In this document: positions 13,748 to 38,915 of the stretch, in pieces | Position numbering within the stretch: position 1 is the stretch's first letter | Layout: each line of letters starts with the position of its first letter | Assembly (NCBI GenBank): GCA_021371895.1 | Contig: JAJFVI010000142.1 | Location: 1 to 47,673 of the forward strand | Source: Eubacteriales bacterium | Lineage (GTDB): Bacteria > Bacillota > Clostridia > Christensenellales > Aristaeellaceae | Reading direction: 5' to 3' | Length of the DNA: 47,673 nucleotides | Notes under the pieces: generated by a model | Database searches by the model: none | Told to the model about the DNA's origin: nothing | The model's input: only the letters and a program-made list of their open reading frames with translations | Translations under genes and position numbers: made by a program

Positions 13748-15192
13748 AGGGCGACCTCCTTTTCAGCCTCGGGCTGGGACATGAAGATTTCAAACTTGTT
13801 TTTCGCGGCTTCCTGGGGCGGCGCTACGGGATAGACGCCCGTGAAGCAGCCCTTGCAAAAGCCGCAGGTGCTGTGGTCGGCAAGCTTATCCAAACATTCT
13901 ACCGGCAGGTAGCCCAAGCTGTCCGCGCCGATCAACTCCCGGATTTCCTCCACGCTGTGGTTGGCGGCAATCAGGTTATCGGTGGAATCGATATCCGTGC
14001 CGAAATAGCAAGGGTGGCGGAACGGCGGCGAGCTGAGCCGCATGTGTACCTCTCTGGCGCCCGCCTCCCGCAGCAGGCTTACGATGCGCGCGCTGGTTGT
14101 GCCGCGCACGATGGAATCGTCGATCAGCACCACGCGCTTATCCTTTACCGTCGCGCCTATCACGTTGAGCTTGATGCGCACGGCGTTCTGTCGCGCCGTC
14201 TGCCCCGGCTGGATAAACGTGCGACCCACATAACGGTTTTTAATAAAGCCCACTCCGTAGGGAATGCCGCTTTGCCGGGCGTAGCCGATGGCCGCGTCGA
14301 TGCCGCTGTCCGGAACGCCGATCACCACATCCGCCTGCACGGGATGCTCCAGCGCCAGAAACGAACCCGCGCGAAGCCGGGCGGTGTGTACGGCGCTGCC
14401 GTCGATTACGCTGTCCGGACGGGCGAAATAGATAAACTCAAACACACACAGGGTGCTGTCGCATTTCTCATTGAGGGTCAAGGTTCGCACGCCGTCGTTG
14501 TCCGCCACCACCACTTCGCCGGGGTGTACGTCGCGGACGAACGTCGCGCCGATGGCGTCCAGCGCGCAGCTCTCGCTGGCGAATACCGTGCCTCCATTGG
14601 GGAGCGATCCCATGCACAGCGGCCGAAACCCGTGTGGGTCGCGCGCGGCGATCAGCTTTTGCGGGCTTACGAGCACCAGCGAATATGCGCCCTTGATGCG
14701 CCGCATCGTGCCCAACACCGCCTGCTCAATGCTGGTGGCCTTCAGGCGCTCCTGAGTAACGGTATAGGCGATCACCTCGCTGTCGCTGGTGGTGTGGAAA
14801 ATGGCCCCGTTCAATTCCAACTTCTCGCGCAGTTCCCCTGCGTTGACCAGATTACCGTTATGGCACAGCGCCATGCCGCCCTTTAAGTGGTTGACCAGCA
14901 GGGGCTGGGCGTTATCCCGGTTGCGGACGCCGGTGGTGCCATAGCGGCAATGCCCCACGGCGATGGAGCCTTCAGGAAGCTTTTCCAGCACCTCGCGGGT
15001 GAACACATCGCCCACCAGCCCAACATCCTTATAGCAGGAGATGATGCCTTTGCTGTTGACGGCCACGCCGCAGCTTTCCTGCCCGCGGTGCTGCAAAGCG
15101 TAAAGTGCGTGGTAGGCCGGGCCTACAACGCCCGTCTGTCCGTCGGGGAGGAACACGCCGAATACGCCGCATTCCTCATGTAAACTGCTCAT
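13744..15192 (-). CDS. purF: Amidophosphoribosyltransferase PurF
   Basis: 482 aa. It has the N-terminal ...[10 protein letters not shown] Ntn nucleophile context, the PRTase motif [13 protein letters not shown], and C-terminal Cys residues consistent with an Fe-S type enzyme. Confidence 0.93.
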
Positions 15193-15337
15193 AAAGGGTT
15201 TCCTTTCAGGGAACTTCGGGTAAAACGAAAGCTGGTTGGCGATCTAGCGATTATCCCTTACCTGTTACTTAGCTTTATTATGCGAAAATAGCCGCATCAA
15301 TCTTAACCAATACCCCAGGGGATGGTTGGGAGGCGAC

Positions 15338-15388
15338 GAAGGGAAGCGTGCGTCCTGTGGACGCACGCCGAAGGCGAAAGCGACCCGG
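15338..15388. repeat. Intergenic repeat module Y, copy C (reverse orientation)
   Basis: GAAGGGAAGCG-TGCGTCCTGTGGACGCA-...-GCGACCCGG is the reverse complement of the module Y pattern CGGGTCGC...GTGCCCACAGRGCAC...CGCTTCCC. The hairpin lies at 15349-15365. Confidence 0.55.
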
Positions 15389-15478
15389 AGTCGGAGAGCG
15401 AAGCGAACCGGCAAACGACAGTGAAGCTGGTGACGACTGAGCTCTCGGATGTTCTCAATCCCCTTCCCACATCGAGCG

Positions 15479-16189
15479 TTATTCGCCCAATAATCTCTTT
15501 AAAATCTCATGGTACGCGTCCTCCACGCCACCCAAATCGCGGCGGAAACGATCTTTATCCAGCTTTTCGTGGGTGGTCGCATCCCAGAAACGGCAGGTGT
15601 CGGGGCTGATCTCGTCCGCAAGCACGATGGTTCCGTCCGCCAGGCGGCCAAACTCCAGCTTGAAATCGATCAGCTCAATGTTCAGGTCTTTGAAATAATC
15701 CATCAGCACCTGATTGACCTTCAAAGCGTAATTGCTGATGGTTTCCATTTCTTTGTCGGTCGCCCAGCCCATGGCGGCGATGTGGTACTGGTTCACCATG
15801 GGGTCGCCCAGCGCATCGTCCTTATAGCAAAACTCAAGTACGGTTTTAGCCATGGGCGTGCCTTCCGGAAGCCCCAGACGCTTGGAAAGGCTGCCCGCGG
15901 CCACATTGCGCACAATAACTTCCAAAGGCACGATCTGCACCTTTTTCACCAGCGTTTCCCGCGGGGAAAGCTCCTGCACAAGGTGTGTGGGTACGCCGTT
16001 TTGTTCCAGCAGCCGCATCAGGTGGTTGGTGACGCGGTTGTTGATGACGCCCTTGCCTTCAATGGTGCCTTTTTTGAGGCCGTTGAAGGCGGTTGCGTCG
16101 TCCTTGTAATCCACCAGCACGAGGGTCGGATCGTCGGTCGCATAGACTTTTTTGGCCTTGCCTTCGTAGAGCTGTTCACGCTTTTCCAT
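15479..16189 (-). CDS. purC: SAICAR synthetase PurC
   Basis: [21 protein letters not shown] is the classic PurC N-terminus. The ATG at 16189 is preceded by AGGAGG. The ORF-track start at 16219 adds 10 aa and is less likely. Confidence 0.92.
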
Positions 16190-21759: not shown

Positions 21760-21843
21760 TGGAATCAAACAATCGGGAGCTGCGCCTTTGAACCGGATGT
21801 GCGTCCAGGGCGGTAACTGTAATGGCACACGGCGGCGGGCGGA

Positions 21844-21873
21844 GGCGGGCGGCTTCCGCCCGCGCGCGTTTTT
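21844..21873 (+). terminator. Possible terminator after dapL
   Basis: GGCGGGCGG-CTT-CCGCCCGC is followed by GCGCG and TTTTT. The T run is offset by 5 nt, so the call is only moderate. Confidence 0.4.
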
Positions 21874-22016: not shown

Positions 22017-24164
22017 ATGCGGTCTGTCCACGCGCGTATTGGCGTGCGCCGCGATACTGCGGCGCTGTTTACGGTCGCTTCCCGCCCCGCGCGCGTCCAG
22101 CGGGGCAAGCGCCTCGCGCTGGCCTGTATGCTTGTATTGCTCTGTGCTTTGCTTTCCGGCTGCGCCGCGCTGGAGGTGCTCAGCACTCCGGCGCCCGCCG
22201 CCGATACGGTGTCCGCTGGCCCCAACCTGGGGCTGCTTGCTCTGCCGACCTACGAAAACGCCGAAGCCGAAAACCCTTCGGAAACCTCTTCCGGTTCTGG
22301 TTACGCCAACGTCGATCTCTGGCTGGACGCGACCCAGAACATGGGCGGCATCAGCACGGTGAAAAGCAGCATGTATCCCCATTCCGGGCGCAAATACCGC
22401 GAAGGCGGCTTCCAGTACCATTACGGCAATACCGTGGGCTGGTATGAAAGCCTGCTGCGGGATTTTCTGGCCGCCGCGGGCGAAACGCACGTGCGTACTC
22501 TGCGCTACGGCAATGAAACCCTGTCCGACGCGTTTCTGGCCGCAGCCGGCCTGACCGGGACGGACGGGCAGGTCACCGCGTCCGTGTGGCGGGATTTGCA
22601 CACCAGCCAGGTCGATACGAACGCTTCGTTCTTTTCCGGGCTGGCCGGCGAGGATATGGCCTCCAGCTTTTACGCGCTGGGTTCCGCCGCGTGGGTCAAC
22701 CGCCTTTCCGCGCTGGCGTCTTCCGATTTGGAAAATCCCACGCTGACGGACGCGATGAGCGCTGCGCTGGATCAACAGATCGCGGGCATCGCGCAGAAAG
22801 ACGACAGTTTTATTTTGCAGCAGGGGCGTGACGGAGAACAATGCGCCCTGCTCAGCGCGCTTGCCAATATCGATACGGATAAGCTCAGCGTGATTACCGT
22901 AGACCCCGCTTCCCTGCGTAAAACCAGCGGCGCGGACGCGCAGGGGCAGCCCATTGCCTATTACGGGCAGGTGCTGCAGGCGTTGGGCGTGTTCGATAAG
23001 GGGCTCTGCGTGGGTATGCTTGATTTTCAGCTGGATTATCTGGGGCAGCTGTCCACCATTTCCACGGCCACGCTCAGCGAGCCGCTCATCTGGGGGCATA
23101 TTATCCTGAACGAGAAAAAGCTGCTGGGCGTGATGCCGCGGCGGATGCTCACGCTGGTCATCGGGACGCGCGCGCGCGTGGACGCCTTTATCCAGAGCCT
23201 TACGCAATTGATCGACGCCGACGTTACGCTCAAGGGCTTGCGCGGAACCCAGGACGAAGAGCTTTCCTACGCCGCTGGCGGGCAGACCGTCGCTTCGCAG
23301 CCTTTCGGCTTTGCGTGGAACGCTACGGTCATCGCGCGGCCGAGCATGGGGTATTATTCCCAGCATACCGAGGGCGTCGTGCTGACCGCCGAAACCACAG
23401 GCGCCTCGGCGGCGGGCGCGACCGTCGCGACCGGCGAAAACGACGTGGCGCTGGTCAGTCTGACGCCCAACACGGAAGGTAAACAGCCCGACCGAACGCT
23501 AAACATAAGCTTCCCACTGCTTTCCGGCGAGGACGGCGCGTCGCTGGACGTGAGCCGTTTAGGCAAAGCGGGGTTGGAAACGCTGGATACGATACTTTTG
23601 TCCCAAACGCAGGAAAACACCTCCGAAAATCTGGCCGCCGCCGAAGCGAACGGGCAGGAAACCGTCGCCTACCGCGATATGCTTTATCTGTTCAGCCGCG
23701 GTACGGAAAGCGACGCCTTTTCGATCACCTCCATTACCGTGCAAAACGGCATGCTGGTCTGCACCGTCGCGGTTAACGGCGAAGCGCTCAAATCCGGCTA
23801 TTATCGGCTGCGTCTCACGGCGGACGCGACCGGCGAGCAGGTGGCTTGGGAAAGCGTGCCCTGGATCGACGGAGAGCAAAGCGTGTCCGCATCGGTCACC
23901 GACGCGGACGTGTACGCGTGGGAAACCTTCACCGCCGCCATAACGCAGTTCGACCGCGATTCCAAGGGCCTGCCCAAGATGTTCCGTAACGCATGGGGGC
24001 CGTATACCACCGATCTTTACCATGGTCTCGCCGTGCCGGCTTGCCCGCCTGTGTACAAGTCCATCCATCTTGCGGAGCTGGCAGCTCAATTCCGCGGCGC
24101 GGCCGCCGCGGACGAAAGCGCTCTGATCCGCTGCGTGTTTGAAGTTTTCGTCGCCTATCCCTAA
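22017..24164 (+). CDS. Large predicted lipoprotein of unknown function (first gene of the four-gene cluster)
   Basis: The ATG at 22017 follows GGGAAGGGAG. The N-terminus ...KRLALACMLVLLCALLSGC carries a lipobox, with the Cys codon at 22161-22163. I recognise no family. VDLWLDATQNMGG vaguely resembles a vWA MIDAS strand. Confidence 0.65.
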   Translation: MRSVHARIGVRRDTAALFTVASRPARVQRGKRLALACMLVLLCALLSGCAALEVLSTPAPAADTVSAGPNLGLLALPTYENAEAENPSETSSGSGYANVDLWLDATQNMGGISTVKSSMYPHSGRKYREGGFQYHYGNTVGWYESLLRDFLAAAGETHVRTLRYGNETLSDAFLAAAGLTGTDGQVTASVWRDLHTSQVDTNASFFSGLAGEDMASSFYALGSAAWVNRLSALASSDLENPTLTDAMSAALDQQIAGIAQKDDSFILQQGRDGEQCALLSALANIDTDKLSVITVDPASLRKTSGADAQGQPIAYYGQVLQALGVFDKGLCVGMLDFQLDYLGQLSTISTATLSEPLIWGHIILNEKKLLGVMPRRMLTLVIGTRARVDAFIQSLTQLIDADVTLKGLRGTQDEELSYAAGGQTVASQPFGFAWNATVIARPSMGYYSQHTEGVVLTAETTGASAAGATVATGENDVALVSLTPNTEGKQPDRTLNISFPLLSGEDGASLDVSRLGKAGLETLDTILLSQTQENTSENLAAAEANGQETVAYRDMLYLFSRGTESDAFSITSITVQNGMLVCTVAVNGEALKSGYYRLRLTADATGEQVAWESVPWIDGEQSVSASVTDADVYAWETFTAAITQFDRDSKGLPKMFRNAWGPYTTDLYHGLAVPACPPVYKSIHLAELAAQFRGAAAADESALIRCVFEVFVAYP

Positions 24165-24214
24165 GCGCGGCGCACGTGCAACCGTCGCCGCCTCGCCAGA
24201 AAGGACGTCCGTCC

Positions 24215-24841
24215 ATGCCCAGAACCGTACATACGACAGTCCAATACCACAACCGCACGAAAGTGCTGCTGTGTTATGCGATCGCCTGGGGGTTGGCGCT
24301 GGCGCTGCCCTGGCTGGGGCTTACATTCCTTTACCCCTATAAGCTGGCGGGCACCGCGCCGGATCTGGCCGCGACGCTTGCGCAGCTGCCGTTTGCCCTG
24401 CCACAGCCCATGCAAAAAACGCTCGTTGCCACCGCGTTTTCCGCCGGTATGCAGACTGACGCTTTGCAGTTGGCACTCGCTGCGCGCGACTTGGTATGGC
24501 AGTACGTTGTTTTTGCGTTTACGGCACTTGCGTGGGTGCTAAGCCTGCTGTGGCAGTTGTTATGGCGTTTCCGCTTCGTGCGCCCCCGGCAGGCCGCGCG
24601 CACGGCCCTGCGTGCGGTGCGCGCCTACCGCTGGTCGATGCTGGGCATCTGGGCGCTCAACCTGCTTTTGGCGCTTTGTGTATACCTCGTCGGCGTAAGT
24701 CGGATCGCGGATCGCACAATGTGGGATTATCTTTTGTATTTTGGCGGATTCGTACTCCAGCCGCTGGCAGCCATGCTTTGCTTCCGGCTGGCCGCGCCGC
24801 CGGCGCTGAGCGGTAAACACGCGTTTTTCCGCCGATTGTAA
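24215..24841 (+). CDS. Predicted 4-TM membrane protein of unknown function
   Basis: There are four hydrophobic segments: VLLCYAIAWGLALALPWLGL, YVVFAFTALAWVLSLLWQLLW, MLGIWALNLLLALCVYLVGV and YFGGFVLQPLAAMLCFRLA. The start is uncertain (ATG at 24215 or the upstream ORF-track start at 24176). Confidence 0.55.
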   Translation: MPRTVHTTVQYHNRTKVLLCYAIAWGLALALPWLGLTFLYPYKLAGTAPDLAATLAQLPFALPQPMQKTLVATAFSAGMQTDALQLALAARDLVWQYVVFAFTALAWVLSLLWQLLWRFRFVRPRQAARTALRAVRAYRWSMLGIWALNLLLALCVYLVGVSRIADRTMWDYLLYFGGFVLQPLAAMLCFRLAAPPALSGKHAFFRRL

Positions 24842-24898
24842 GCTTTACGGCGCACACCGGCGATTCACCTGGGCTTCGCCCATGACTTGGGAGGCGCT

Positions 24899-27001
24899 AT
24901 GTCCAATTACCTCATCGCCGTAGGCGGCACCGGCAACAAGATACTGGAGGCGCTCGTATATGCCTGTGCGGCCGATGCGTTGTATACGCTGGACGCGCAG
25001 GGCCGCCGCACGCCCCTGCCGGAAGTCCGCGCCCTGATCGTGGATGTGGACGCTGCCTGCGGCAACACCACCCGCGCCAAACAGGCCGCCGAGCATTACG
25101 AACGGGTGCGTTCCGCCTTTGAAACCGCGGGAGTCAGCCGCCGCGGCTTTCACACGGCGCTTACGGTGGAACGCTGGAACATGAACCTCGCCAAACGCTC
25201 CGCCTCCATCGCCGGCATGACGCTTAACCACCGGCGTGATCGGCTGCTGGCCGAAAGCCTCTTTTCCCGCACCGAGGCGGAACTGGAATACAGCGAGGGC
25301 TTCCGCGGCCATCCCGATTTGGGCGTGCTGTTTTTTGCCGATCTGCTCAACCATCTGGGTGAGCGTGCCGCGCAGGGGCAGCCCGACGAAATGGTCGATC
25401 TGCTGGATCAGATCCAGCGGGATCTGGATGCGCTGGAAACGGTCAAGGTCATGCTGGTCGGTTCCATTTTCGGGGGCACCGGCGCCAGCGGCATCCCCAG
25501 CATCTCCCGCTACCTGCGCCAATGTTTCAGCAAGTACGCCGATCACTTCGTGCTTTCGTCGGTGATGATGCTGCCCTATTACGACGTGCCGCCCGCCACC
25601 GTGGACGAGACGTTGGAGATTGTGGTGAAATCCTCGCAATTTTTGGATAAAGCGCGCACCGCGCTGCAATACTACGGCATGGAGGGGATGATCCGCTCCG
25701 GCGAGGACGACCCCGACGGCCTGTATGACGCGCTGTATCTGCTGGGGCTGCCCCGCGATGCTTTTGTGACCACGCGCGTCTACTCCACCGGTTCCCAGAC
25801 GCAGGAAAACGACGCTCACCTGCTGGAATGGCTGGCTGTGCGCTGCGCTTCCATCTTCTTTCGCACCGGGTTTCGCGGCGCGGACGCGCATAACATCGAC
25901 TGCTATTATTACCAGTGGCACTCCCACGACGTATCCTGGGCATGTTTTGACGAGGAAGGCGCCTTGTACCATAACACCTTCGGCGGGCTCATCAAGGCGT
26001 CGGCGCTGTTTTTCTGCGAATGCTATCCCACGCTGCGCGCCTGCGTGCGCCGGGACGAGCGCCGGCTTTCCCGTACGGTCAATTACTGGACGACGTATTT
26101 TTACGACGCGCGCAAGCTGGGCGCAGGGAAACGCGCAGAGCTGGAAAAGCTGATCGATTCGCTTTACCGGCTGATGGCCTTCTACACCAACTGGATGTGG
26201 CAGGTGCTGCGAACGCTGCCCCCCACACTGCGGCCGGAGCGGGAGATTGAGTTGAAAACGCACGAGCTGCAGGCGGTGTACCGAAAGCTTGTGGATACGC
26301 AGGCGGAAAGCCTGGGCCGGGAAAGTGCGCCGGCTTCCGCCACAGGGGAGGACGATGGCACACAGGACGAATATAAACGCCTGAAAGCCAAGCTGGACGA
26401 GCTGATCCCCGCCGTGGGCGGACACGCGTTTTTAAACGCGCTGCAAGCAGAGCGTGAGTTTCGCGCGCAGCGCATGGAAGCCCAGCGGCAAGCATTAAAG
26501 GAGCAAAACGGCAGCATCGCGCGCTGGGAAGGGGAAGATCAGCACCTGATCGACCCCAAGGCACTTAGGCAGGAGAAAAGCCGCCGCGATACCATGCTGC
26601 GCGCGCTGGCCGGTATGGAGGATCGCGCCGCGCTGGTGGAAGCGGATATTGTGCGGGCCGTGGAAAAACATGTGGCGGACGTCACCCCCGCTCTGCGGGA
26701 CGACGAACCTTCTCCCAATAACCTGTTTTCGCCCACCGGGCTGAACGCGATGCACGATCTGCTGGCGCTCTACGGCGCCGAGGCGGAGGAGCGCGACCCC
26801 AAGGCCATGGAGGCGCTTCGCCGCGCCCTGTGGGACGGCTTAAACCGTATCGTCACCCAACGCGTGCCCGACTGTGTCACCGCGGCGCAGGCCGTGGCGG
26901 GGTTGGGCGGCGGCACGCGTGTGGGCGAAGGCCCGCAGGCGGCCTTCGCGAGCTTTACCGCGGCGCTGCTTGCCGCCGTGATGGAGGAGGAAAACGTATG
27001 A
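24899..27001 (+). CDS. Tubulin/FtsZ-superfamily-like GTPase with a long coiled-coil C-terminal region (candidate, Tubulin_2-like)
   Basis: The ATG at 24899 follows GGGAGG. A T1-like loop YLIAVGGTGNKILEAL is encoded near 24917-24940. The T4 signature-like GSIFGGTGASG has GGTGASG at 25472-25492. The C-terminal 250 aa or so are rich in E, R, Q, A and L in a heptad-like pattern. The assignment rests on motifs only. Confidence 0.55.
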   Translation: MSNYLIAVGGTGNKILEALVYACAADALYTLDAQGRRTPLPEVRALIVDVDAACGNTTRAKQAAEHYERVRSAFETAGVSRRGFHTALTVERWNMNLAKRSASIAGMTLNHRRDRLLAESLFSRTEAELEYSEGFRGHPDLGVLFFADLLNHLGERAAQGQPDEMVDLLDQIQRDLDALETVKVMLVGSIFGGTGASGIPSISRYLRQCFSKYADHFVLSSVMMLPYYDVPPATVDETLEIVVKSSQFLDKARTALQYYGMEGMIRSGEDDPDGLYDALYLLGLPRDAFVTTRVYSTGSQTQENDAHLLEWLAVRCASIFFRTGFRGADAHNIDCYYYQWHSHDVSWACFDEEGALYHNTFGGLIKASALFFCECYPTLRACVRRDERRLSRTVNYWTTYFYDARKLGAGKRAELEKLIDSLYRLMAFYTNWMWQVLRTLPPTLRPEREIELKTHELQAVYRKLVDTQAESLGRESAPASATGEDDGTQDEYKRLKAKLDELIPAVGGHAFLNALQAEREFRAQRMEAQRQALKEQNGSIARWEGEDQHLIDPKALRQEKSRRDTMLRALAGMEDRAALVEADIVRAVEKHVADVTPALRDDEPSPNNLFSPTGLNAMHDLLALYGAEAEERDPKAMEALRRALWDGLNRIVTQRVPDCVTAAQAVAGLGGGTRVGEGPQAAFASFTAALLAAVMEEENV

Positions 27002-30000
27002 AGCGCAGGCAGGAGGATCCGCGCGTGGCGCAACCGGCCCGGAAAGAAACCTACCTGACGCTGCTGCCCGATATGGACGAGGGCTTTCATACCGGTTACC
27101 AGACCCGCGCGGGCGTGGTGAGCGACGGTAATCAGCGTCCCCACGAGTGGCTGGAAAGCTTCGCGCGCAACATGCGAACCGCCGGGGAGGACGTCGGCTA
27201 CTCCATTCCGGACGTGCTTGCGGGCGAGGCGCAGCTGCGCCGCCTGATGCGCATGCCCCACGAGGCGGCGATGCGCCATCAGGAAATGGTGGACTGGCGC
27301 GGAGCGCTGGCGGTGCTGCTGCTTTGGGACGGATGGGTGAAGGACGATACCTGGCCCCAGCTCAGCTGCGAGGATATGCTTTCAGGGGAGGGCGGCGCGT
27401 TTCTCCACAGCGTGCGCGCGGCGCTGCCCGCAAACCGAAAAGCCTTTGGGATACGGCTGTTTTTCCTGTCCACGGAACGCGATGGTGTGCCCGAGCGCAA
27501 GGCGCTGGGTATGCTTTCGCCTGTCGTGGCGCTCGCGCCTGCCGCCAACCCCGGCGATCTATCGGGGCTGCTGCCCAAGTGCGTGCATTGGTATAACCGT
27601 GACCGCAAGCGCTTTGAGGATCCCTGCGCCTTTTTAGATGAGGCCGATCGCGCGCGGCTGCTGCAGTACCTTCGCTACCTGCAGGCGCTCAACGAGCGTA
27701 CCGATCTGCAAAGCCCGCTGTACGCAACGGACGCGTCCCTCAGCGGGCTGATCGACCGGTTTATCCGCGATCTGCAAACGCCGCGCACTTCCTGGCGGGA
27801 ACGGTTGGAGGCGGGTGACCCGCACGCGCAGACGGAACTCTACATCCGCGCGTTGGCGGTGTACGGCCTTATGGAGATCAGCGGCCTTACGGGACTCACC
27901 CGGCGGGATATTCCCCTGTCCATCGCGGAGCTCAACTGCAACGTGCTTTTACGCTGGCTGGTTTCCGAGGGCGTCGCCCCGCCGGAGGAATTTGCCGGCA
28001 TCACCGTGACCACCTACGCGTTTGACGGCCTGCCGTTTGCCATCGCCTCCCCGCGTTACCTGCTGGAACCGGTCAACCGGCCGGAAGAGACGGCCACGCT
28101 GCAGCGGCTGTGGGCGGAGATTTCGCTTCCGCTGCAATATAACGGGGAGTGGAACCGCGCCGTGGCCAAGCGCTTTGTGGAGTTGGCCAACCACCTTACC
28201 GGCTTTTCCGGCACCGACAGCCGCGCCAGCCGCCGCGTGATCGAATTGATGCGGCAATGGAGCGCGAAGCTTGCCAATTTCCGCGAATCGGGCGACCGGG
28301 TGCTTTCGCTGAAGCTGCCGCTTTCGGATATGCCCTCCACACTGTCCGGCTTGACGCGGGAGATGGTGGGCATTGACGATACGGAGGCGCTGGCGGGCGC
28401 GTTTTCGGATTGTCTGCTGCTGTGCGCAGGCGACCCGCCCTTTGGCGACGTGGTGCTCAACGAACACTGCGCGGTGCGCGGCGCGGAAAAGTTATACGCC
28501 ATTCCGCCGGTGGCCCCGGCGCTTGCGCTGTGGCTGTCGCGCGCGGCCGAGGAAAGCCAGGATGATCTGCTGCGCCCCCGCCTGCCCGCCGAAGCGTTTG
28601 ATTTTGAGCTGATTCAGGATGCCCATGGGCGTAAGATTCGCGCCCGGATGCACCTTACGCGCAAACAACGTGCGCAGGACGCAACCTTTCAAAACCGCAT
28701 TGAACTGACCAGCGATTATACGTTGGGTACGGAATTTGCCCGGGGGACTGCGGTACCGGTGGCGACCGGGGATTTGCCCACGGTGCGCTGCTGGCCCGCC
28801 GCGCGTCTGGCGCGGGGGCAATGGACAGCCTACTATGTGCTCGCCCAGCGGCCGGACGCGGTGGATGTGCTGGTGCCCGGCGAGGACGGCATGGTACAGG
28901 GTGAGCCGCGCTGCGTTGCGGACGGCGAGGGGGAGCCCCCCGCCGAGCACCGCTGGCAGACCGCACGCACCCGCACCTGGCCGATGTACGTGGCGCTGGC
29001 CCGCGGTAAGCTGAGCCTTGGCGTGTTGCCCAACGACGAACCCGTTTTGCAGCTCAAGCGTGAGGCCCCTGCCGCCGTCGCCATCGATTTCGGCTCCAAC
29101 GCCACCACCGTGATGCTCCGGCAGGGGGAACAGATACGCCCGGCCTCGTTGCCGCCCGAGATGCTTAAAACTTTGCTGAAAGGACGTGTGCAGGACGACT
29201 TGCGCCTGCCTGACGAGCTGCTGCCTGCCCTCTGCTACATGGACGAACGCCGCCCCTCCACCTTTATCAGCGTGATGGACATGTTCAGCGATGACGAGCA
29301 GAAATGGAACGTCCCGCTGCTGGACGGGCACATCTATTACGCGCCCGATCTGGCCGCGCTGCTCAAAAAGAACCCCAACGTCCTCTACTACGATCTCAAA
29401 TGGGGTGAGGAACCCTATGTGGTGCGGTGCCTTCGGCTCTTTCTGAAACAAACTATGCTGCAGGCTTCGCTGGCGGCGCGGCTGGTCGGCTCGCCGACGC
29501 TCAGCTGGCGTATTTCCATGCCCAACGCCATGCCGCTTTACCGGCAGGAAGCTTATCTGGAAATGGTGCGCTCGCTAAGCAAGGAAGTCGCCGCCGATAC
29601 GGGCATGCAGCTGACCGGGGATATGCCGGCAGTACTCTTCGCCCATGAAAACCAGGCGGACGGCCTTTATTTCCGCTACCGTAACGAGGTCAATGCGCGC
29701 AACGGCTATGTGAACATGGACGTGGGCGGCGGTACGACCGACCTGAGCGTGTGGCTGGGCGGCGCGTCGCGGGCTTCCATTGAGGCGTCGCTGCTGCTGG
29801 GTTGCCGGCAGATTCTCTTCGATTCGCTTTCCTCACGCCGCCGTGCCGAGTTCGAGGCGGATTTTGCCAATGCGGACGCGGGTTTGTACCGTCTGGTGCA
29901 GGAGATGGTGCGCGCTTTCGCGGCCGGCCGCAATTCGCTGCGTGCCCGCCAGAAAAACGTATTCCTGCTGGATGCGTTTTTTGCCCGCCATAGCGAAAGC

Positions 30001-30648
30001 ATCGCCGAAACCATGGCCGCCATCCGCGGCGAAGGCCGGGTGAGCCTGCTGGAAAGTCTGCTGCTCTTGAACTTCGGCTTCCTCTTCCGCCTTTGCGGAG
30101 AATTGCTGGATCGCTGTGATTACAGCGAAGAAACCCGCGCCCAGCTTTGCCCGCGTATGGAGATCTGCGTGGCGGGCAACGGCGGCCAGTTTTTAAAGAT
30201 CTTTGACCGCGATACGCGCACCAAGCTGTTCCGCCTGGCGCTTTCCGCCCTTAACCCCGATCACCCCGTGCGGGAGCTGATATTGCTGCAAAGTCGGCAT
30301 CCCAAGCAGGAGGTCGCCCGCGGGTTGCTGGCGGATATTACGCGTCTGGCCAGCAGCGTGCAGGGCGGCGAGGCCGTGGGCCCCGCGCAAACGCTGGCGG
30401 TGCCTTCGGAGAAGCGCCGCGCACTGCTCAAGGAATACTTACAGGATTTTTATTCCGCCTTCCCTCAGGCGGGGGAAAAGCTGCTGGGCAGAGCTTTTGA
30501 GCGGGATGTGAACCCGCAGGTCGTGCGGTTGAAGGCCGCCGCCGAGATTGAGCTGGAAACGGTGCTGGACAACGAAATGGACGACGGGGACGAATTCGGC
30601 GGGTACGTGCGCGCCTTCGCCGCCATGAAGCGTCTGTGGGAAATCTGA
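26998..30648 (+). CDS. 1216-aa protein with C-terminal actin/Hsp70-fold (ASKHA) ATPase motifs
   Basis: The ATG at 26998 overlaps the upstream stop as ATGA. Phosphate-1-like AAVAIDFGSN is at 29071-29100. Phosphate-2-like DVGGGTTD is at 29719-29742. Adenosine-like VAGNGGQ is at 30169-30189. I recognise no motif in the N-terminal 690 aa or so. Confidence 0.6.
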   Translation: MKRRQEDPRVAQPARKETYLTLLPDMDEGFHTGYQTRAGVVSDGNQRPHEWLESFARNMRTAGEDVGYSIPDVLAGEAQLRRLMRMPHEAAMRHQEMVDWRGALAVLLLWDGWVKDDTWPQLSCEDMLSGEGGAFLHSVRAALPANRKAFGIRLFFLSTERDGVPERKALGMLSPVVALAPAANPGDLSGLLPKCVHWYNRDRKRFEDPCAFLDEADRARLLQYLRYLQALNERTDLQSPLYATDASLSGLIDRFIRDLQTPRTSWRERLEAGDPHAQTELYIRALAVYGLMEISGLTGLTRRDIPLSIAELNCNVLLRWLVSEGVAPPEEFAGITVTTYAFDGLPFAIASPRYLLEPVNRPEETATLQRLWAEISLPLQYNGEWNRAVAKRFVELANHLTGFSGTDSRASRRVIELMRQWSAKLANFRESGDRVLSLKLPLSDMPSTLSGLTREMVGIDDTEALAGAFSDCLLLCAGDPPFGDVVLNEHCAVRGAEKLYAIPPVAPALALWLSRAAEESQDDLLRPRLPAEAFDFELIQDAHGRKIRARMHLTRKQRAQDATFQNRIELTSDYTLGTEFARGTAVPVATGDLPTVRCWPAARLARGQWTAYYVLAQRPDAVDVLVPGEDGMVQGEPRCVADGEGEPPAEHRWQTARTRTWPMYVALARGKLSLGVLPNDEPVLQLKREAPAAVAIDFGSNATTVMLRQGEQIRPASLPPEMLKTLLKGRVQDDLRLPDELLPALCYMDERRPSTFISVMDMFSDDEQKWNVPLLDGHIYYAPDLAALLKKNPNVLYYDLKWGEEPYVVRCLRLFLKQTMLQASLAARLVGSPTLSWRISMPNAMPLYRQEAYLEMVRSLSKEVAADTGMQLTGDMPAVLFAHENQADGLYFRYRNEVNARNGYVNMDVGGGTTDLSVWLGGASRASIEASLLLGCRQILFDSLSSRRRAEFEADFANADAGLYRLVQEMVRAFAAGRNSLRARQKNVFLLDAFFARHSESIAETMAAIRGEGRVSLLESLLLLNFGFLFRLCGELLDRCDYSEETRAQLCPRMEICVAGNGGQFLKIFDRDTRTKLFRLALSALNPDHPVRELILLQSRHPKQEVARGLLADITRLASSVQGGEAVGPAQTLAVPSEKRRALLKEYLQDFYSAFPQAGEKLLGRAFERDVNPQVVRLKAAAEIELETVLDNEMDDGDEFGGYVRAFAAMKRLWEI

Positions 30649-30695: not shown

Positions 30696-30743
30696 AAAAA
30701 ACACCCGTGCCGAAGGTGAGCAGCATCCGGCACGGGCGTTTTG
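30696..30743. terminator. Bidirectional terminator between convergent genes
   Basis: AAAAAA, then CCCGTGCCG, a 15-nt loop, CGGCACGGG, then CGTTTT. It lies between the stop at 30648 (+) and the stop at 30759 (-). Confidence 0.65.
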
Positions 30744-30758
30744 CATTGATATGCCGCG

Positions 30759-32765
30759 TTAGGGCTTATAGTAATGGATGATCTTCACACATCGGTCGTT
30801 ATTGAGCAAATATTGCAATATCCACACCTTGCCGTCCGTTGTTTTGCAGGAATATTGCACGGTACGGGTATCGTCGTCGTTTTGCAGCACCACGCCGGAG
30901 TTGAGATCGTTGTAATAGAGGTTGCGGCTGCCGTCCTGGTTGGGAAGCATCCCCATATCCTTATAAGCGGCCACGATGTCGCTTTCGCTGTCACCCAGCC
31001 CCACGCCGCGCGGCGACGCGGCAATCTTATCGTTCATCTCGATGCGCACCATCTGCCATTTGTTCTCGTTAAGGATAAACACGGCATACCCCCAAGCATA
31101 CTCCAGGTGCTGCGCCTCGTCCGCCAGGGTCAGGTATTGTGTGGTAACAGCCGATTTGGGCTGTCCGAACTGCGCCTTGAAATCTTCTACGGAGGTGCTG
31201 TTGAGCTTGAAGCCGTCGAAGGTGTCCGCGTCGCTGTAGATCGCCTGCAGATACGGCTTGGCCTTGAATTTGTAGGTGACTTCCAGCGTGCTGGATTGTT
31301 TGCCATAGCCGTTTACGGCGATCGCCCGCAGGGTGACGCCGCCGCTGGGCAGTTGGATAGGCGTTCCATCGTACACGGGGCTCAGTTCCGGGTCGGGGGT
31401 GGATCCGTCGATGGTGTAATAAAAGGTCTGCTGATCTTCCTTGGCGAGTTGCTCCTTGGTCTTTTTACTGCGCTGCTCCCTGGTTTGGGTATTGGCGCCC
31501 GCGCGTAAACCGACTGTGTGGAGGCTAGTATAGGTGTTGGGTGCGAGGTTGCATTTGGGGGCGGGGGGCGAGGGGTAATAAACGGTGTAGGACATACTCA
31601 TCTCGTCGCTCACCAGGTCGTCCGCCACGCATACGGCGCGCAGGACGAAAGTGCCTTCGGGGATCGTGACGGTGTTGTTCTCCACCAGTTGTCCGCCCTT
31701 CGGCAGCACCGCGGCGCTATCCAGCGTATAGTAAATCTCGTACCCCTGCGGTGAGGTAACGGTGATGCGCTGTTCCAACTCGTAGCGGCCCGCGAGGTGA
31801 TCGGTGTCCACCTGGGGCGTATTGGGGATAAAATCCTTGCGCTGCTGGCGGAAGCTGTCTTTATCGGTGCTCTGGTAAGCCAGCAGCATCATATCGGCGG
31901 CTTCCGGGTCGCGCCCGGTATCCAGGTAGAGGGTGATAAGCGCCGTATACGCTTCGGTGCGCGAAGGGTTGACCGTTTTGATCAGCGATTGGTAAACCGC
32001 TTCCGCTTCGTTATCCATGCTGTTAAGTTCGTAAGCGGTACTCAATTGCATCAGGCCGTCGTAGTTCTCGGGATCCAGAATATCGGCGATGCGGAAAGCT
32101 ATAATGGAATCGTCCATATCGCCTTCATCCAAATACTCCTGCCCGACCACCCAGTAGGACTGCGCGGGCGCGTCGTCCAGCGATTTAAGCGCTTCCTTAC
32201 GCGCTGTTTCCCTTGCGGAGTCGGCGCTGGAGGCCAGCGTAAGCAGCGCCTCGTTGGTGGCGAGCACACGCTTGCGCGCGGTCATGCGCTGTCCGGCGTC
32301 GGAGGTGTTCAGGTAAACCAGGTAGCCTATGCCCGCGAGCATGGCGAGGCCTACGCAGATTACGCCGATCATCATCCAGTTTACGGGATGCTGGGACACG
32401 CCCTTGGCTTTGCCGCGGCGGGAAACCACCGGCCGCGTGCGGCTGCTGCCGTGCACCGGTACGCCCCGGCGGGTGTTGGGGCGGCTGGCAAAGGTTTCCA
32501 GCACGGGCCCGGAAGCCTTTGGCGGCTTGCGGTGCACGCCGCGCTCCTGTTCCACGGGGAAGGGTGAGTTTTCAAAATCCCCATACTCGGGTATTTCGCT
32601 GCGCGCCTCGTCCGGCAGGGAAGTAGGAGCAGCGCTATGGCGGCCCTGCCTGAGGGCGCGCACGCCCGTATCCCGCGGCTCGTCGCTGCGGCTTACCATT
32701 GCGCCGCAAATGTGGCAAATAATCTCGTCCTCCTCAAGATAGTTGCCACAGCGTTTACAGATCAT
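30759..32765 (-). CDS. Zinc-ribbon / single-TM / TPR protein with C-terminal chitobiase-hexosaminidase-C-like (Fn3-associated) domains
   Basis: The ATG at 32765 (MICKRCGNYLEEDEIICHICGAMV, a CxxC...CxxC zinc ribbon) follows GGGAGGAA. The TM segment is WMMIGVICVGLAMLAGIGYLVYL. Downstream are TPR-like repeats and two YYT(L/I)DGS...LRA(V/I) modules. The ORF-track start at 32909 would overlap the upstream gene. Confidence 0.7.
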   Translation of the reverse strand: MICKRCGNYLEEDEIICHICGAMVSRSDEPRDTGVRALRQGRHSAAPTSLPDEARSEIPEYGDFENSPFPVEQERGVHRKPPKASGPVLETFASRPNTRRGVPVHGSSRTRPVVSRRGKAKGVSQHPVNWMMIGVICVGLAMLAGIGYLVYLNTSDAGQRMTARKRVLATNEALLTLASSADSARETARKEALKSLDDAPAQSYWVVGQEYLDEGDMDDSIIAFRIADILDPENYDGLMQLSTAYELNSMDNEAEAVYQSLIKTVNPSRTEAYTALITLYLDTGRDPEAADMMLLAYQSTDKDSFRQQRKDFIPNTPQVDTDHLAGRYELEQRITVTSPQGYEIYYTLDSAAVLPKGGQLVENNTVTIPEGTFVLRAVCVADDLVSDEMSMSYTVYYPSPPAPKCNLAPNTYTSLHTVGLRAGANTQTREQRSKKTKEQLAKEDQQTFYYTIDGSTPDPELSPVYDGTPIQLPSGGVTLRAIAVNGYGKQSSTLEVTYKFKAKPYLQAIYSDADTFDGFKLNSTSVEDFKAQFGQPKSAVTTQYLTLADEAQHLEYAWGYAVFILNENKWQMVRIEMNDKIAASPRGVGLGDSESDIVAAYKDMGMLPNQDGSRNLYYNDLNSGVVLQNDDDTRTVQYSCKTTDGKVWILQYLLNNDRCVKIIHYYKP

Positions 32766-32809
32766 GAAACGGTTTCCTCCCTTCCCGAAATTGCGATGCC
32801 GCCTGTTGG

Positions 32810-33496
32810 TTACGGCGTCACCTGTGGGGTCGGGGACTGGTTGTTGACCGCGTGGTCGTTGATCACCAGCTGAAATTCCTGCCCCAGAAAAGCCGCGGCT
32901 TTTTCGCACATCACGATGCGCGGCATGTAGATACTCAGGTAATCCAACACGCTGCTGGAACTGTCCATGGTCAGGGATTGCCGTATGAGGCGGGTTTTCC
33001 GATCGACAATCACAGTGTTTTGCTGTATGGAGAAATTGACGCGGTCGTGCACGTCGCCGGGGTCGGGCCGACCGTTGCGCACACGGCTTTTGTGTGCGTC
33101 GCTCTTATCGCCGATGACCAGCGCCGCGCTTACGGCGCTGCTTACGATGCCGCTCTGCTCCTCATGGTTGCCTACGGCGGTGATGATCTCCACGGTATCC
33201 ACGATGCTCATGCCCGCCTCCTTAAGGATGGGAAAGAGCATTACGGCGCCGTTGGGGCCGTGATCGTGGCGGTTGATGCTGTTGCCCACGTCGTGTACCC
33301 AGCCGGCGATGGCCGCCAGCTCGATTTCCCGCTCACTGTACCCTAAAGCTTTGAGGATGTAGCTCGCCGTGCGGCTGACGTAACTCAGGTGTCTGGGCCC
33401 GTGGTCGGTGTACCCCAGCGCTTCCAGGTAATGGTTGCCCGCTTTGACCAGCGCACGGATACTCTCGTTTCTCTTGATCTCATCCAGTGTGATCAT
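32810..33496 (-). CDS. HD-domain phosphohydrolase
   Basis: 228 aa. The H...HD motif is present (GPRHLSY...GWVHDVGNSINRHDHG). Confidence 0.8.
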   Translation of the reverse strand: MITLDEIKRNESIRALVKAGNHYLEALGYTDHGPRHLSYVSRTASYILKALGYSEREIELAAIAGWVHDVGNSINRHDHGPNGAVMLFPILKEAGMSIVDTVEIITAVGNHEEQSGIVSSAVSAALVIGDKSDAHKSRVRNGRPDPGDVHDRVNFSIQQNTVIVDRKTRLIRQSLTMDSSSSVLDYLSIYMPRIVMCEKAAAFLGQEFQLVINDHAVNNQSPTPQVTP

Positions 33497-36148: not shown

Positions 36149-37027
36149 CTAGTGGATACGGTTCAGCAACTGGAGCAGGTCGTGTGTGGTAAAGGTGTAT
36201 TTTTGATTGCAGAAATGGCATATCAATTCCGCGCCGTCCACCTCGTCGGCGATGATGCTCTTTAACTCAACCTCGCCAAGCGAGATCAGCGCGCGTTCCA
36301 TGCGCCGGCGGGAGCAGCCACAGCGGTAGCTTAAGGGAACGTCCTGTAACGCCACGGGATTAAGCCCCGAAAACCACTGATGCATCAGCGCTTCCACAGT
36401 GCTATAACGCAACTCGGAAGCAATTTCCCCAAAGATGGGGGAGCGTAGCTCCAGAGGATCGATTACCCCGTCGGGGCAATCCGGCAGGGGCTGCAGCAAC
36501 ACCCCGCCCGCCGAAGTAACTTCCGCATCAGAGGCGATCACGCCCAAGCTGACCAGTGACGGGCTTTGCTCGCTTTGCACGTAGTAATAGGCCAGATCGG
36601 CGGCAATCTCACCGGATTGCAGCTCCGTCTGCCCGATGTAGGGCGATTTCAGGCGCAAATCCTTGACCACGCTCATGCGTCCGTGCCGACCCACCGCGCG
36701 CCCCACGTCCAGCATACCGTCGCGCAGGGGAAGCCGCACGTTTGGGTTGGTCACCAACCCGCGCACGGTCTCGCCGTCGCCGACGCAGAGGATTTTGCCA
36801 AGCGGGCCGTCGCCGTCGATGGTGAAGGTAACGGAAGCGCCCGGTTCCTTAAGTGTGGCGGCCAGCATAAGCGTGCCCGTGAGCGCCCGCCCAAGCGCCG
36901 CCGCAGCTACGGCGGTCGCTCCGTGCAGGCGTTGCGCCTCCCCGACCGTCTGGGTGGAGCGGATGATCAGCCCGCGCACTGCGCCGTCGGCCAAGGTGAA
37001 ATGCAATACCGAATCCTGATTCTCCAT
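36149..37027 (-). CDS. hslO: Redox-regulated chaperone Hsp33
   Basis: 292 aa. The C-terminal zinc centre is CGCS...CHFCNQKYTF. The N-terminal body is Hsp33-like. Confidence 0.9.
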   Translation of the reverse strand: MENQDSVLHFTLADGAVRGLIIRSTQTVGEAQRLHGATAVAAAALGRALTGTLMLAATLKEPGASVTFTIDGDGPLGKILCVGDGETVRGLVTNPNVRLPLRDGMLDVGRAVGRHGRMSVVKDLRLKSPYIGQTELQSGEIAADLAYYYVQSEQSPSLVSLGVIASDAEVTSAGGVLLQPLPDCPDGVIDPLELRSPIFGEIASELRYSTVEALMHQWFSGLNPVALQDVPLSYRCGCSRRRMERALISLGEVELKSIIADEVDGAELICHFCNQKYTFTTHDLLQLLNRIH

Positions 37028-37922: not shown

Positions 37923-38915
37923 TCACGGTTGCGGATTGCTGCCGTCCTGTCCGTCTTCTTCGTCCTCATCAGTTTCCACATAGAGGCCTCGGTTGAGTTG
38001 CGCGCCTTCGATTTTTACGTTGATGTACTTATCAAACACGGCGTTTGTGTAGCTGGCAGCCACGAACCGGCTGAGAGAAAAACCCAAAAGCACGTAGTAG
38101 AGGATGCAGATCATCAGCGCCCATTGGAAATACGGCGTCAGATAGCTGACTACCGCAGCGATCAGCACAGGCACGATGGAAAGCAACTTCAGCCCCACCG
38201 TGATCGGCAAACGACCGATGGTTAAAAGGAGGCTGTTGCGCAGCACGTCGCGGTAGCGGAGGTGGTAGGTAACGATCAGCGGGTAGGTGTACATCAGGCT
38301 CATCAGCCACACAATGCCCAGCAGAAGCGTCAGCACCTGCGGAATGATATAGAGCGTATTGCTTTGCGCCATCTGCCCGTAAAACGACCAACATACGTAC
38401 ACGATCACCGGCACAAATCCCGTGATGACGCTGGTGATGAGCCCCTGCTTCCAGTTTTCCTTTACGGCGTCCTTATAATCACCCCACAGAAAGGCGTGCT
38501 CGTCGCGTGCCCAGTTGCGGGTTACCAGGCTGATGCCTGCCGTAAACGGACCCGTAATGGCAAGCGCCGGGATTAAGAATAGCAGCCCCTGGAATGCTAT
38601 TGACTTTATGGCGTCCACGTACAGCGCCTGTTGCGTGGCAAACTCCGCAGCCGCCAGCGTACCCGCGTCCAACTGAGCCTGCATGTCGGCCAGATTGACC
38701 GTGGCCGAGTAGAACATAAGCACATGGAAGCCGATCACCAGCAGCGCCGGAAGCCAGCTTAGCATATACAACAAATTTAACCGCATCAACCCACTGAAGC
38801 GCGTGCGCAGCGTCTCCCAGAAAAGCTGGGTGCGGGTTCCGGGCAGATCCTCGTGGGTGTAATCCCCCTTACCGCTCTTTCCGTAGAAGTAACCATTCAT
38901 GAATTTTCCAAACAT
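37923..38915 (-). CDS. DUF624 (YesL-like) multi-pass membrane protein
   Basis: 330 aa. The N-terminus (FWETLRTRFSGLMRLNLLYMLSWLPALLVIG) and several TM segments resemble the YesL/DUF624 family. It has an acidic C-terminal tail. Confidence 0.65.
   Translation of the reverse strand: MFGKFMNGYFYGKSGKGDYTHEDLPGTRTQLFWETLRTRFSGLMRLNLLYMLSWLPALLVIGFHVLMFYSATVNLADMQAQLDAGTLAAAEFATQQALYVDAIKSIAFQGLLFLIPALAITGPFTAGISLVTRNWARDEHAFLWGDYKDAVKENWKQGLITSVITGFVPVIVYVCWSFYGQMAQSNTLYIIPQVLTLLLGIVWLMSLMYTYPLIVTYHLRYRDVLRNSLLLTIGRLPITVGLKLLSIVPVLIAAVVSYLTPYFQWALMICILYYVLLGFSLSRFVAASYTNAVFDKYINVKIEGAQLNRGLYVETDEDEEDGQDGSNPQP

Follow-up and report, generated by a model that had tools for sequence, protein, structure and literature searches.

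This locus raises the question of why a tubulin/FtsZ-like GTPase is encoded in one gene cluster with a giant protein of actin/Hsp70 fold, a lipoprotein, and a small membrane protein, and what the four products might do together. The genes, here called g1 to g4, lie on contig JAJFVI010000142.1 (assembly GCA_021371895.1) of an Eubacteriales bacterium placed by GTDB in the family Aristaeellaceae; "the window" denotes the whole 47,673-nucleotide stretch of that contig that was analyzed. Comparison with related and distant genomes revealed that the cluster is the local form of a widespread four-component module, all four positions of which recur across phyla, and that the linkage of the four genes is far beyond chance. 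We consider it highly probable that they make up a single conserved membrane module centered on g3 and g4. The overall reading we favor, with a probability of about 0.5, is that of a membrane-spanning machine with two nucleoside triphosphatases (NTPases), built around a GTPase of the FtsZl1 family and acting in envelope surveillance or conflict.

A scan of open reading frames (ORFs) placed g1 at 22017-24164 (715 aa), g2 at 24215-24841 (208 aa), g3 at 24899-27001 (700 aa), and g4 at 26998-30648 (1216 aa), all on the + strand. Spacers of 50 nt and 57 nt separate g1 from g2 and g2 from g3, while the sequence at 26998-27001 (+) reads as an ATGA start/stop overlap between g3 and g4, the arrangement expected for translational coupling. 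Shine-Dalgarno-like purine runs are found 5' of g1, g3, and g4. Upstream, the cluster is bounded by a terminator-like hairpin 3' of dapL (21835-21873, + strand), with a 12-bp stem containing 10 GC pairs and then a T run (GCGCGTTTTT). Its downstream boundary is a bidirectional terminator-like hairpin at approximately 30697-30745, where an A run, CACCCGTGCCG...CGGCACGGGCG, and a T run can be read on both strands; the hairpin was read from the sequence, and the terminator scan detected part of it on the - strand. A preliminary description of the locus, made from the sequence alone, had listed the same four + strand ORFs, gaps of about 50 and 57 nt followed by an ATGA overlap, a hairpin before the cluster, and a bidirectional terminator after it, and all of these were seen.

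The g3 product is classed by its sequence as a member of the FtsZl1/Tubulin_2 family. Residues 6-228 match the Pfam family Tubulin_2 (PF13809) with 31 bits against a gathering cut-off of 27, and the second glycine loop also matches Pfam Tubulin (PF00091), the general Tubulin/FtsZ GTPase model. When the four proteins were searched against Pfam, NCBIfam, and PADLOC, Tubulin_2 in g3 was the one significant match. Homologues of g3 mostly carry precomputed PF13809 assignments and the annotation "tubulin-like doman-containing protein". Tubulin_2 corresponds to the FtsZ-like 1 (FtsZl1) family of Makarova and Koonin (2010; PMC2875224), an equivalence given in PMC9871819. We aligned 36 family members, including two Bacteroidales proteins at 21-22% identity. 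The T1-type glycine loop AVGGTGNK (residues 7-14; 24917-24940, + strand) retains A7, G9, G10, T11, and G12 in all 36 sequences, and the T4-type tubulin signature GSIFGGTGASGIP (residues 188-200; 25460-25498, + strand) is invariant from G188 to P200 except for I190. Because both loops are invariant across the 36 members, nucleotide binding by g3 is very probably retained, and the preliminary identification of a tubulin/FtsZ-like protein with two glycine loops stands. Residues 445-600 are 35% E/K/R/Q and by composition fit the coiled-coil region typical of FtsZl1 proteins; a weak SMC-like match (E 0.05) was also obtained. A tail-less form of about 525 aa occurs in about half of the relatives. 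No Pfam match to the FtsZ_C domain was found in g3.

No Pfam family was assigned to g4, and faint matches to EutA and Ppx-GppA (E 0.16-0.26) merely hinted at the ASKHA superfamily. Residues 18-1216 were modeled with AlphaFold from 72 homologues, giving a mean predicted local distance difference test (pLDDT) score of 88 and a predicted template-modeling score of 0.77. When searched with Foldseek against the PDB, this model gave 455 matches at E<=1e-3, the best having an E-value of 2.5e-7, a probability of 1.0, and a template-modeling score of about 0.5 on the target. Among the 50 matches listed, all were nucleotide-binding domains (NBDs) of the Hsp70 family (Hsc70, Hsp72, mortalin, DnaK, Ssb1, and similar). 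The Hsp70-like domain comprises approximately residues 692-1216 (29071-30645, + strand), and so it occupies the C-terminal 43% or so of the protein, about 525 aa, rather than the C-terminal third given in the preliminary description. The three ASKHA motifs named there are present and invariant, and the fold was confirmed by the structure search of the model. The phosphate-1 motif is AIDFGSNATTV (residues 695-705; 29080-29112, + strand), the phosphate-2 motif MDVGGGTTDLS (residues 907-917; 29716-29748, + strand), and the adenosine motif VAGNGGQ (residues 1058-1064; 30169-30189, + strand). D-F-G, D-x-G-G-x-T-x-D, and G-N-G-G are invariant in the 72 close homologues, and the D and G of phosphate-1, the D-x-G-G..D of phosphate-2, and both G of the adenosine motif are invariant in the close and the distant family alike. 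The lysine of DLKWGEE (from residue 799) and the segment HENQADG (from residue 883) are also conserved. In 34 distant homologues, with an average identity of 21%, the invariant positions are D588, K692, E770, D794, G796, G797, D801, and G949. The profile of these distant proteins aligned with the Hsc70 NBD in hhalign at E 9.4e-5, with E770 and D794 falling on E175 and D199 of the Hsc70 sequence used. The g4 phosphate-2 motif aligns with both FDLGGGTFDVS of Hsc70 and DIGAGTMDIS of FtsA.

Other searches with g4 were negative. Pfam HSP70 (PF00012) did not match the protein even at E<=1, no FtsA-family (SHS2_FTSA) Pfam match was obtained, and the g4-family profile found nothing significant among PDB sequences, its best match being the FtsA phosphate-2 loop (E 2.3, 23 residues). 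The NBD runs to the last residue of g4 and is followed by neither a substrate-binding domain nor a lid, and no J-protein (DnaJ) or GrpE gene is present among the four genes or the flanking genes. The N-terminal portion of about 690 aa is family-specific, with helical, alpha/beta, and beta-rich parts, and had no match in Pfam or among PDB sequences. On the strength of the model, we describe g4 as a predicted cytoplasmic protein of the ASKHA superfamily that is nearest to the Hsp70 NBD and, as it has no substrate-binding domain and no co-chaperones, falls outside the definition of an Hsp70 chaperone.

The association of g3 with g4 was followed well beyond the Clostridia. A HMMER search of 1.84 billion representative proteins with the g4 profile recovered 1052 clusters at E<=0.001, of which 694 reached E<=1e-10 and 170 reached E<=1e-30. 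Genomic contexts were viewed in two Bacteroidales genomes, five representative-protein loci, 40 metagenome loci, seven IMG/VR contigs, and cyanobacterial plasmids; ORFs in these contexts were called mechanically as the longest ORF, and E-values within related loci are relative to the candidate stretches only. A g3-like sequence was adjacent to, or fused upstream of, the g4-like gene in 45 of the 47 genes having at least 1.3 kb of upstream DNA. For these 47 a strict script had returned 39 adjacent, 2 fused, and 6 with none; three of the latter (L079, L095, and L111) were re-scored as adjacent pairs whose ORF overlap exceeded the tolerance, and L057 was re-scored as a fusion. The 150 best representatives include 22 long proteins (1635-1771 aa; P0295-P0343) in which homology to g3 over its whole length covers the first 660 or so residues (hhalign with a 22-sequence profile: 99.5%, E 5.6e-23, 599 columns), and further g3-g4 fusions were found in P0340, L080, and L084. 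Pfam gave no match in five relatives of 1.5 to 1.8 thousand residues, the tubulin-like half being visible by hhalign only. The ATGA-type junction between g3 and g4 recurs among relatives, while in other lineages both genes are fused. That g3 and g4 are an obligate pair acting as one unit is strongly indicated by the combination of their fusion, their near-universal adjacency, and the ATGA overlap.

All four genes are held together in the clade of the window. Homologues of g1, g3, and g4 are encoded under adjacent locus tags in Clostridia metagenome-assembled genomes, many of them labeled Candidatus Limiplasma. When the g4 alignment was used to scan GTDB, each species being represented by a single genome, 50 loci of this clade were obtained. 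The order and orientation g1-g2-g3-g4 were kept in all 46 loci with enough upstream DNA (46/46), the remaining four being cut by contig ends, and g2 is conserved in 47 ORFs of the Clostridia loci. Synteny in relatives, which the preliminary description had proposed as a check, was thus found throughout. Chance adjacency or misannotation was rejected as an explanation on these synteny counts (46/46 here and 45/47 for the g3-g4 pair at large).

The products of g1 and g2 are predicted to reside in the envelope. In g1 a lipobox, LLSGC (residues 45-49; 22149-22163, + strand), ends in a cysteine, C49, that is invariant in 62 homologues and follows a hydrophobic h-region at residues 30-48; the protein is thereby classed as a lipoprotein, predicted to sit on the outer face of the membrane. 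Hydropathy revealed four hydrophobic segments in g2, predicted to be a small, polytopic integral membrane protein. Both results agree with the preliminary account of a 715-aa lipoprotein with a lipobox and a small protein with four transmembrane segments. The AlphaFold model of g1 (pLDDT 85) has an N-terminal alpha/beta domain followed by beta-sandwich domains. The motif VDLWLDATQNMGG (residues 99-111; 22311-22349, + strand) comprises a beta strand and D-x-T-x-N, with D100, D104, G110, and G111 invariant. In the wider g1-like family an invariant Y-v-D-x-T-x-S-M-x-G-F follows a beta strand and is itself followed later by V-T-D-L, the pattern of a metal-ion-dependent adhesion site (MIDAS). The motif of the window is degenerate (D-A-T-Q-N) in comparison with the MIDAS-like D-x-T-x-S-M-x-G of that family, and g1 is probably a vWA-like protein of a divergent or degenerate vWA/MIDAS type.

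Counterparts of both envelope components precede the pair in distant loci. In 25 of 32 distant loci, the gene immediately upstream of the g3-like one encodes a protein of 134-271 aa with 3-5 hydrophobic segments; sequence similarity of this protein to g2 was undetectable (hhalign E 0.09), and the two are equivalent by position and topology only. In 20 of the loci with this small gene, the preceding gene encodes a protein of 390-585 aa with one N-terminal hydrophobic segment, and these 20 proteins group in a single BLAST cluster with homology to the g1 family by hhalign (98.8%, E 1.1e-16, 449 columns). Single-sequence comparison of g1 and g2 with the genes upstream in the Bacteroidales was negative, the homology of g1 being detected by profile-profile comparison only. 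With a wider g1-family profile, a g1-like gene was found upstream in 38 of 54 loci. One locus, L058, is a two-gene version with the g3-like and g4-like genes only.

Nine distant loci (L059-L081; for example, 12139-13206 of L059) have homologous genes directly after the g4-like gene, encoding proteins of about 300-720 aa with 1-2 hydrophobic segments. This fifth gene is not present in the window, and we rejected it as an equivalent of the g3 tail, to which it has no similarity.

The pairing of the two superfamilies is not in itself new. The ftsA-ftsZ genes also pair a tubulin-superfamily GTPase with an actin/Hsp70-superfamily ATPase, and the preliminary claim that no described operon couples the two does not hold. 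As in ftsA-ftsZ, whose products cooperate at the membrane, the genes of the two NTPases adjoin each other in the module, one source names a g4 relative "cell division ATPase FtsA", and the FtsA phosphate-2 loop was the best, although not significant, PDB match of the g4 profile. Unlike FtsZ and FtsA, however, g3 has no FtsZ_C domain and g4 no FtsA-specific Pfam match, the g4 model is structurally closest to the Hsp70 NBD, the gene order is reversed with the tubulin-like gene first, and g4 has an N-terminal region of about 690 aa that is not in FtsA. Hsp70/DnaK and g4 have in common the NBD fold, the three motifs (phosphate-1, phosphate-2, and adenosine), and alignment columns in which Lys and Glu are conserved; g4 differs in its large N-terminal extension and in having no substrate-binding domain or lid, no Pfam HSP70 match, and no J-protein or GrpE partner.

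The claim is further contradicted by published FtsZl1 neighborhoods. FtsZl1 was predicted to be the center of a membrane-remodeling or vesicle-biogenesis system with vWA, OmpA, and GTPase partners, and its members have an FtsZ-like domain at the N terminus, a long coiled coil, and a C-terminal domain made of alpha helices (PMC2875224). The published operons have a vWA protein of 600-750 aa encoded immediately upstream of the FtsZl1 gene, the Magnetospirillum neighborhood amb2957-2961 ends in a 1626-aa COG0443 DnaK/HSP70 protein (PMC2875224, supplementary file 5), and genomes with FtsZl1 generally also keep a conventional FtsZ (PMC2875224). The cluster resembles these operons in the Pfam membership of g3, its GGTG and GGTGxSG loops, its N-terminal GTPase domain and charged, putatively helical tail, the large secreted or membrane-anchored and possibly vWA-like protein just upstream, the membrane-associated partners, and the giant COG0443/HSP70 protein that ends one published neighborhood; in addition, one distant module (L061) lies beside a classical vWA-FtsZl1 pair. 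In contrast to the published operons, g3 is shorter (700 or about 525 aa versus about 1000-1150 aa), and the window has no Pfam-recognizable vWA, OmpA, protein kinase, or P-loop GTPase. The invariant partner in the module is instead the giant Hsp70-NBD protein, not discussed as a component in PMC2875224, and the small protein with four transmembrane segments is a fixed member.

Tubulin and HSP70 are also components of predicted GTPase-centric conflict systems (Kaur, Burroughs, Iyer, and Aravind 2020; PMC7159879), which likewise contradict the claim. Such systems are defined by one or two TRAFAC-clade DO-GTPase genes, a GAP1 protein with GAP1-N, -M, and -C domains, and an FNIII-repeat or GASH component. 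These DO-GTPase/GAP1 systems resemble the module in having tubulin-superfamily, vWA, HSP70-superfamily, and transmembrane components near the membrane as predicted NTP-dependent switches, in their trypsin-like peptidase accessories, and in firmicute versions with tubulin fused to a coiled coil (PMC7159879). In that survey, however, the tubulin theme and the HSP70+GrpE theme are non-overlapping neighborhoods (PMC7159879), whereas the two are an obligate pair in the module, and the HSP70 of the module is an NBD-only domain that ends a protein of about 1200 aa with no GrpE or DnaJ. The defining DO-GTPase gene(s) are not in the window either: no P-loop (TRAFAC-clade DO-) GTPase domain was found in g1-g4 or in the neighbors bounded by the two terminators, and Pfam gave no family for g1, g2, or the N-terminal region of g4 in a general scan that included no GAP1-directed comparison. 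In the literature searched, neither the four-component module nor its fusions or distribution are described, and an experimental study of any FtsZl1 protein was likewise not found; together with the PADLOC check, the search maps the cluster to no characterized system. The novelty lies in this particular four-component module, its tight conservation, and its breadth rather than in the pairing of superfamilies as such.

Further contexts of the module bear on its function. It is carried on plasmids of Picosynechococcus sp. PCC 7003, 8807, and 73109, Synechococcus sp. NIES-970, and Gloeothece verrucosa PCC 7822, where the core genes are annotated as hypothetical or as "tubulin-like doman-containing protein". 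In PCC 7003 (L113; NZ_CP016476.1 230938-237611) the core, AWQ21_RS15655 to RS15640, is followed by genes for "prefoldin domain-containing" and TM2-domain proteins, and in Gloeothece (L114; NC_014503.1 39251-44646) it comprises CYAN7822_RS34005 to RS34015. On one IMG/VR contig, L105, the module lies between two tyrosine integrases (713-1939 and 14822-15898). After the core there, within 8935-13808, come five tightly packed genes, two weakly ZorA/MotA-like, two ZorB/MotB-OmpA-like (E 6e-14 and 5e-11), and one encoding a trypsin-like protease related to that of the PADLOC model "RT-Protease_XI"; PADLOC matched these accessory genes (the ZorB-like ones and the RT-Protease_XI protease) and not the four core proteins. 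Elsewhere the module is found beside a DNA methyltransferase and a tail-fiber gene (L102), near MotA_ExbB/OmpA, SNase, FtsK, and AAA_12 genes (L060), and, in the Bacteroidales loci, ahead of genes for a coiled-coil protein and a trypsin-like peptidase. In L061 (11818-19813) the g1-g4-like module is followed at once by genes for proteins of 692 aa, 726 aa (Pfam-VWA), and more than 1195 aa (classical Tubulin_2), so that two different FtsZl1-type modules stand in tandem. The ZorB-like/MotB-OmpA and weak ZorA-like/MotA_ExbB genes beside the module in L105 and L060 suggest, by analogy with Zorya, a shared logic of envelope sensing; unlike Zorya, the window and its close relatives have no ZorA/ZorB genes, and g1-g4 match no Zorya model.

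A defence-type role in envelope surveillance or conflict is, tentatively and at somewhat less than even odds, the most likely function, because the wider family occurs on plasmids, near phage tail genes, and in integrase-flanked islands with ZorB-like and trypsin-like genes, and because of the predictions published for related systems. Membrane remodeling and an NTPase-based conflict system had both been guessed at in the preliminary description; the same two are offered in the literature for FtsZl1 systems, and the contexts found here fit them. In such a machine g1 would read something outside the cell, be it the wall, a peptide, or a ligand from an invader, and g2 would couple this signal across the membrane or anchor the complex. 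On the inner face g3 would assemble or switch with GTP. Through its large N-terminal region g4 would dock on g3, and it could then use ATP to tether, control, remodel, or dismantle the g3 assembly, by analogy with FtsA and its partner FtsZ or with Hsp70 and its oligomeric clients. The output would be a perturbation of the membrane or of growth, and in the Limiplasma lineage the module would now be a stably inherited, chromosomal core version. The window may hold the core version of a large and undescribed family of envelope systems, composed of a vWA-like outer protein, a small polytopic protein, a tubulin-like GTPase, and a giant Hsp70-NBD ATPase, the two NTPases being obligate and sometimes fused. 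By itself, g4 makes up over 1000 protein clusters, which occur in at least Bacillota, Bacteroidota, and Cyanobacteriota. We give rather less than an even chance to this reading, in which the family would be either a new class of anti-phage or anti-invader defence acting through nucleotide-driven assembly at the membrane or a new prokaryotic cytoskeletal machine.

A number of observations weigh against the surveillance machine. We know of no FtsZl1 protein for which polymerization has been shown. The vWA-like nature of g1 draws on a weak match, the g1-like profile aligning in hhalign (E 8.5e-4) with a Pfam-VWA protein over its beta1-MIDAS region at a probability of only 24%. Foldseek with the whole g1 model found nothing in the PDB or BFVD at E<=1e-3, the top sub-threshold matches being mu-homology, Ig-like, and adhesin beta-sandwiches, with the vWA protein ITIH1 at probability 0.1. 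Pfam VWA matched none of 62 g1-family members or 10 distant g1-like proteins. Among PDB sequences the g1-family profile gave nothing significant, with one spurious match to Sec61, and the profile of the wide g1-like family no vWA match. No family of PADLOC-DB v2.0.0 matched g1-g4 at E<=1, no toxic effector domain is recognizable in the core module, and a tblastn search of 50,697 sequenced phage genomes with a g4-like protein was without a match; the "viral" contigs with the module may be integrative elements rather than phages. Many relatives have also lost the nucleotide-binding signatures: the long fusions (P0295-P0343) have degenerate T1/T4 loops, for example LLSVGQAAERAL, with LGDLCDAFSGG replacing GGTGASG, and many proteins of about 1050-1130 aa (the P0265-P0345 class) are without the DxGGGT phosphate-2 motif. 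From their sequences these look like co-evolving pseudo-NTPase versions of both partners.

The behavior of the locus in the clade of the window likewise counts against surveillance, and it favors a housekeeping machine, in which FtsZl1-based membrane remodeling or envelope biogenesis (vesicles, local wall or glycan assembly, shape) would be a core trait of this Clostridia lineage and g4 would tether or regulate g3 by analogy with FtsA and FtsZ. In this clade the cluster looks like a stable chromosomal, housekeeping locus. Its synteny and flanks are stable over g4 identities from 87% down to 41%, and the close relatives (g4 at least 65% identical) all share the flanks of the window (dapF-dapL and the HD protein). 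Judged by L005, the closest relative, g3 (83% identity) and g4 (87%) evolve at about the same slow rate as dapF (83%) and dapL (89%), while g1 (69%) and g2 (74%) are more diverged than g3 and g4. With a G+C content of 0.62-0.66, the cluster differs little from the surrounding DNA, no mobile genes adjoin the cluster in the window, and there is the negative PADLOC result. Glycan genes recur as neighbors: 33 more distant relatives encode a GT4 glycosyltransferase immediately upstream of g1, on its strand (for example, 4466-5797 of L001, with a 25-nt gap, and 3288-4571 of L003), and Bac_transf and NTP_transferase genes precede the fused g3-g4 gene of L057 (5362-7682). Membrane remodeling or vesicle biogenesis was also the original prediction of Makarova and Koonin (PMC2875224). 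On the other hand, the wider family is patchy across phyla and occurs on plasmids, in integrase-flanked islands, and with phage tail genes nearby, its accessories (ZorB-like proteins and trypsin-like proteases) are variable, and many relatives have lost their nucleotide-binding loops, which would be unusual for an essential cytoskeletal NTPase. The subclade of the window is moreover without a GT4 neighbor, none being encoded in the whole window, and we rejected GT4 as a fifth core member. A housekeeping machine is, on balance, unlikely, if well worth keeping in view.

Tubulin-fold (TubZ) and actin-fold (ParM) NTPases both serve plasmid or prophage partition, and a module present on cyanobacterial plasmids and integrative elements could have begun as a TubZ- or ParM-like segregation or maintenance device of mobile DNA that was later fixed in the chromosome. 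TubZ/RepX is mentioned in PMC2875224. Yet no TubR- or ParR-like DNA-binding adaptor was seen among the conserved partners, which are instead an extracytoplasmic lipoprotein or single-span protein and a polytopic membrane protein, the nearest structure to g4 is the Hsp70 NBD and not ParM, the module is chromosomal and syntenic in about 50 Clostridia species, and the phage genomes contain no match; we regard this origin as very improbable. It is also improbable, if less so, that g4 does no more than fold or oligomerize g3 as its dedicated chaperone or assembly factor, with the membrane genes as unrelated neighbors. The Hsp70-type NBD, the "prefoldin domain-containing" annotation of the gene after g4 in Picosynechococcus, and two-gene versions such as L058 would fit that role, but g4 lacks the substrate-binding domain of an Hsp70 as well as any DnaJ or GrpE partner, and g1-like (38/54 loci) and small transmembrane (25/32 loci) genes co-occur with the pair across phyla, the homology of g1 spanning distant loci.

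Outside the two terminators, the upstream flank comprises a GMP-synthase-like gene, the diaminopimelate epimerase gene dapF, and the class I/II aminotransferase gene dapL. Downstream are a convergent gene for a 716-aa Zn-ribbon/TPR/CHB_HEX_C protein (30759-32909, - strand) and a gene for an HD-domain protein, both of which stay beside the cluster in close relatives. The 716-aa protein has an N-terminal Zn-ribbon-like CxxC pair, a transmembrane segment, TPR repeats, and two CHB_HEX_C/Fn3-associated domains. Of the housekeeping flanks in the preliminary description, dapF-dapL is as described, whereas hslO (Hsp33; 36149-37027) lies about 5.5 kb from the cluster and the 716-aa gene occupies the adjacent position.

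The far end of the window, 39000-47673, is a stretch of lower G+C content (0.46-0.54 versus about 0.6) with phage tail-module genes among the - strand genes at 41387-46401. These are Baseplate_J (45331-46401), a Mu Gp48-like gene (44646-45341), and a tail-collar fiber gene (42839-44653), all on the - strand, with an RVT_1 reverse transcriptase gene (41387-42532, - strand) directly downstream of the tail fiber. A tail fiber followed by RVT_1 is the layout of a diversity-generating retroelement; a template/variable direct repeat of at least 50 nt was not found in 38900-44700 with a 9-nt seed.

FtsZl1 is the most divergent branch of the tubulin/FtsZ superfamily and has no known function sixteen years after its description. 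The present analysis supplies it with a fixed partner, a giant Hsp70-fold ATPase that is fused to it in some lineages, and with a defined four-gene core. The module is broadly distributed and occurs, among other places, on plasmids in cultured cyanobacteria akin to a strain that is a standard genetic model; these cyanobacteria are practical hosts for genetics, and with the fixed partner, the four-gene core, and such tractable hosts, the function of FtsZl1 can be tested directly. Should the module serve in defence, its mechanism would draw on NTPases of cytoskeletal and chaperone type and not on nucleases. If it is a cell-biological machine, it would be a second, independent pairing of a tubulin fold with an actin/Hsp70 fold at the bacterial membrane, beside FtsZ-FtsA.

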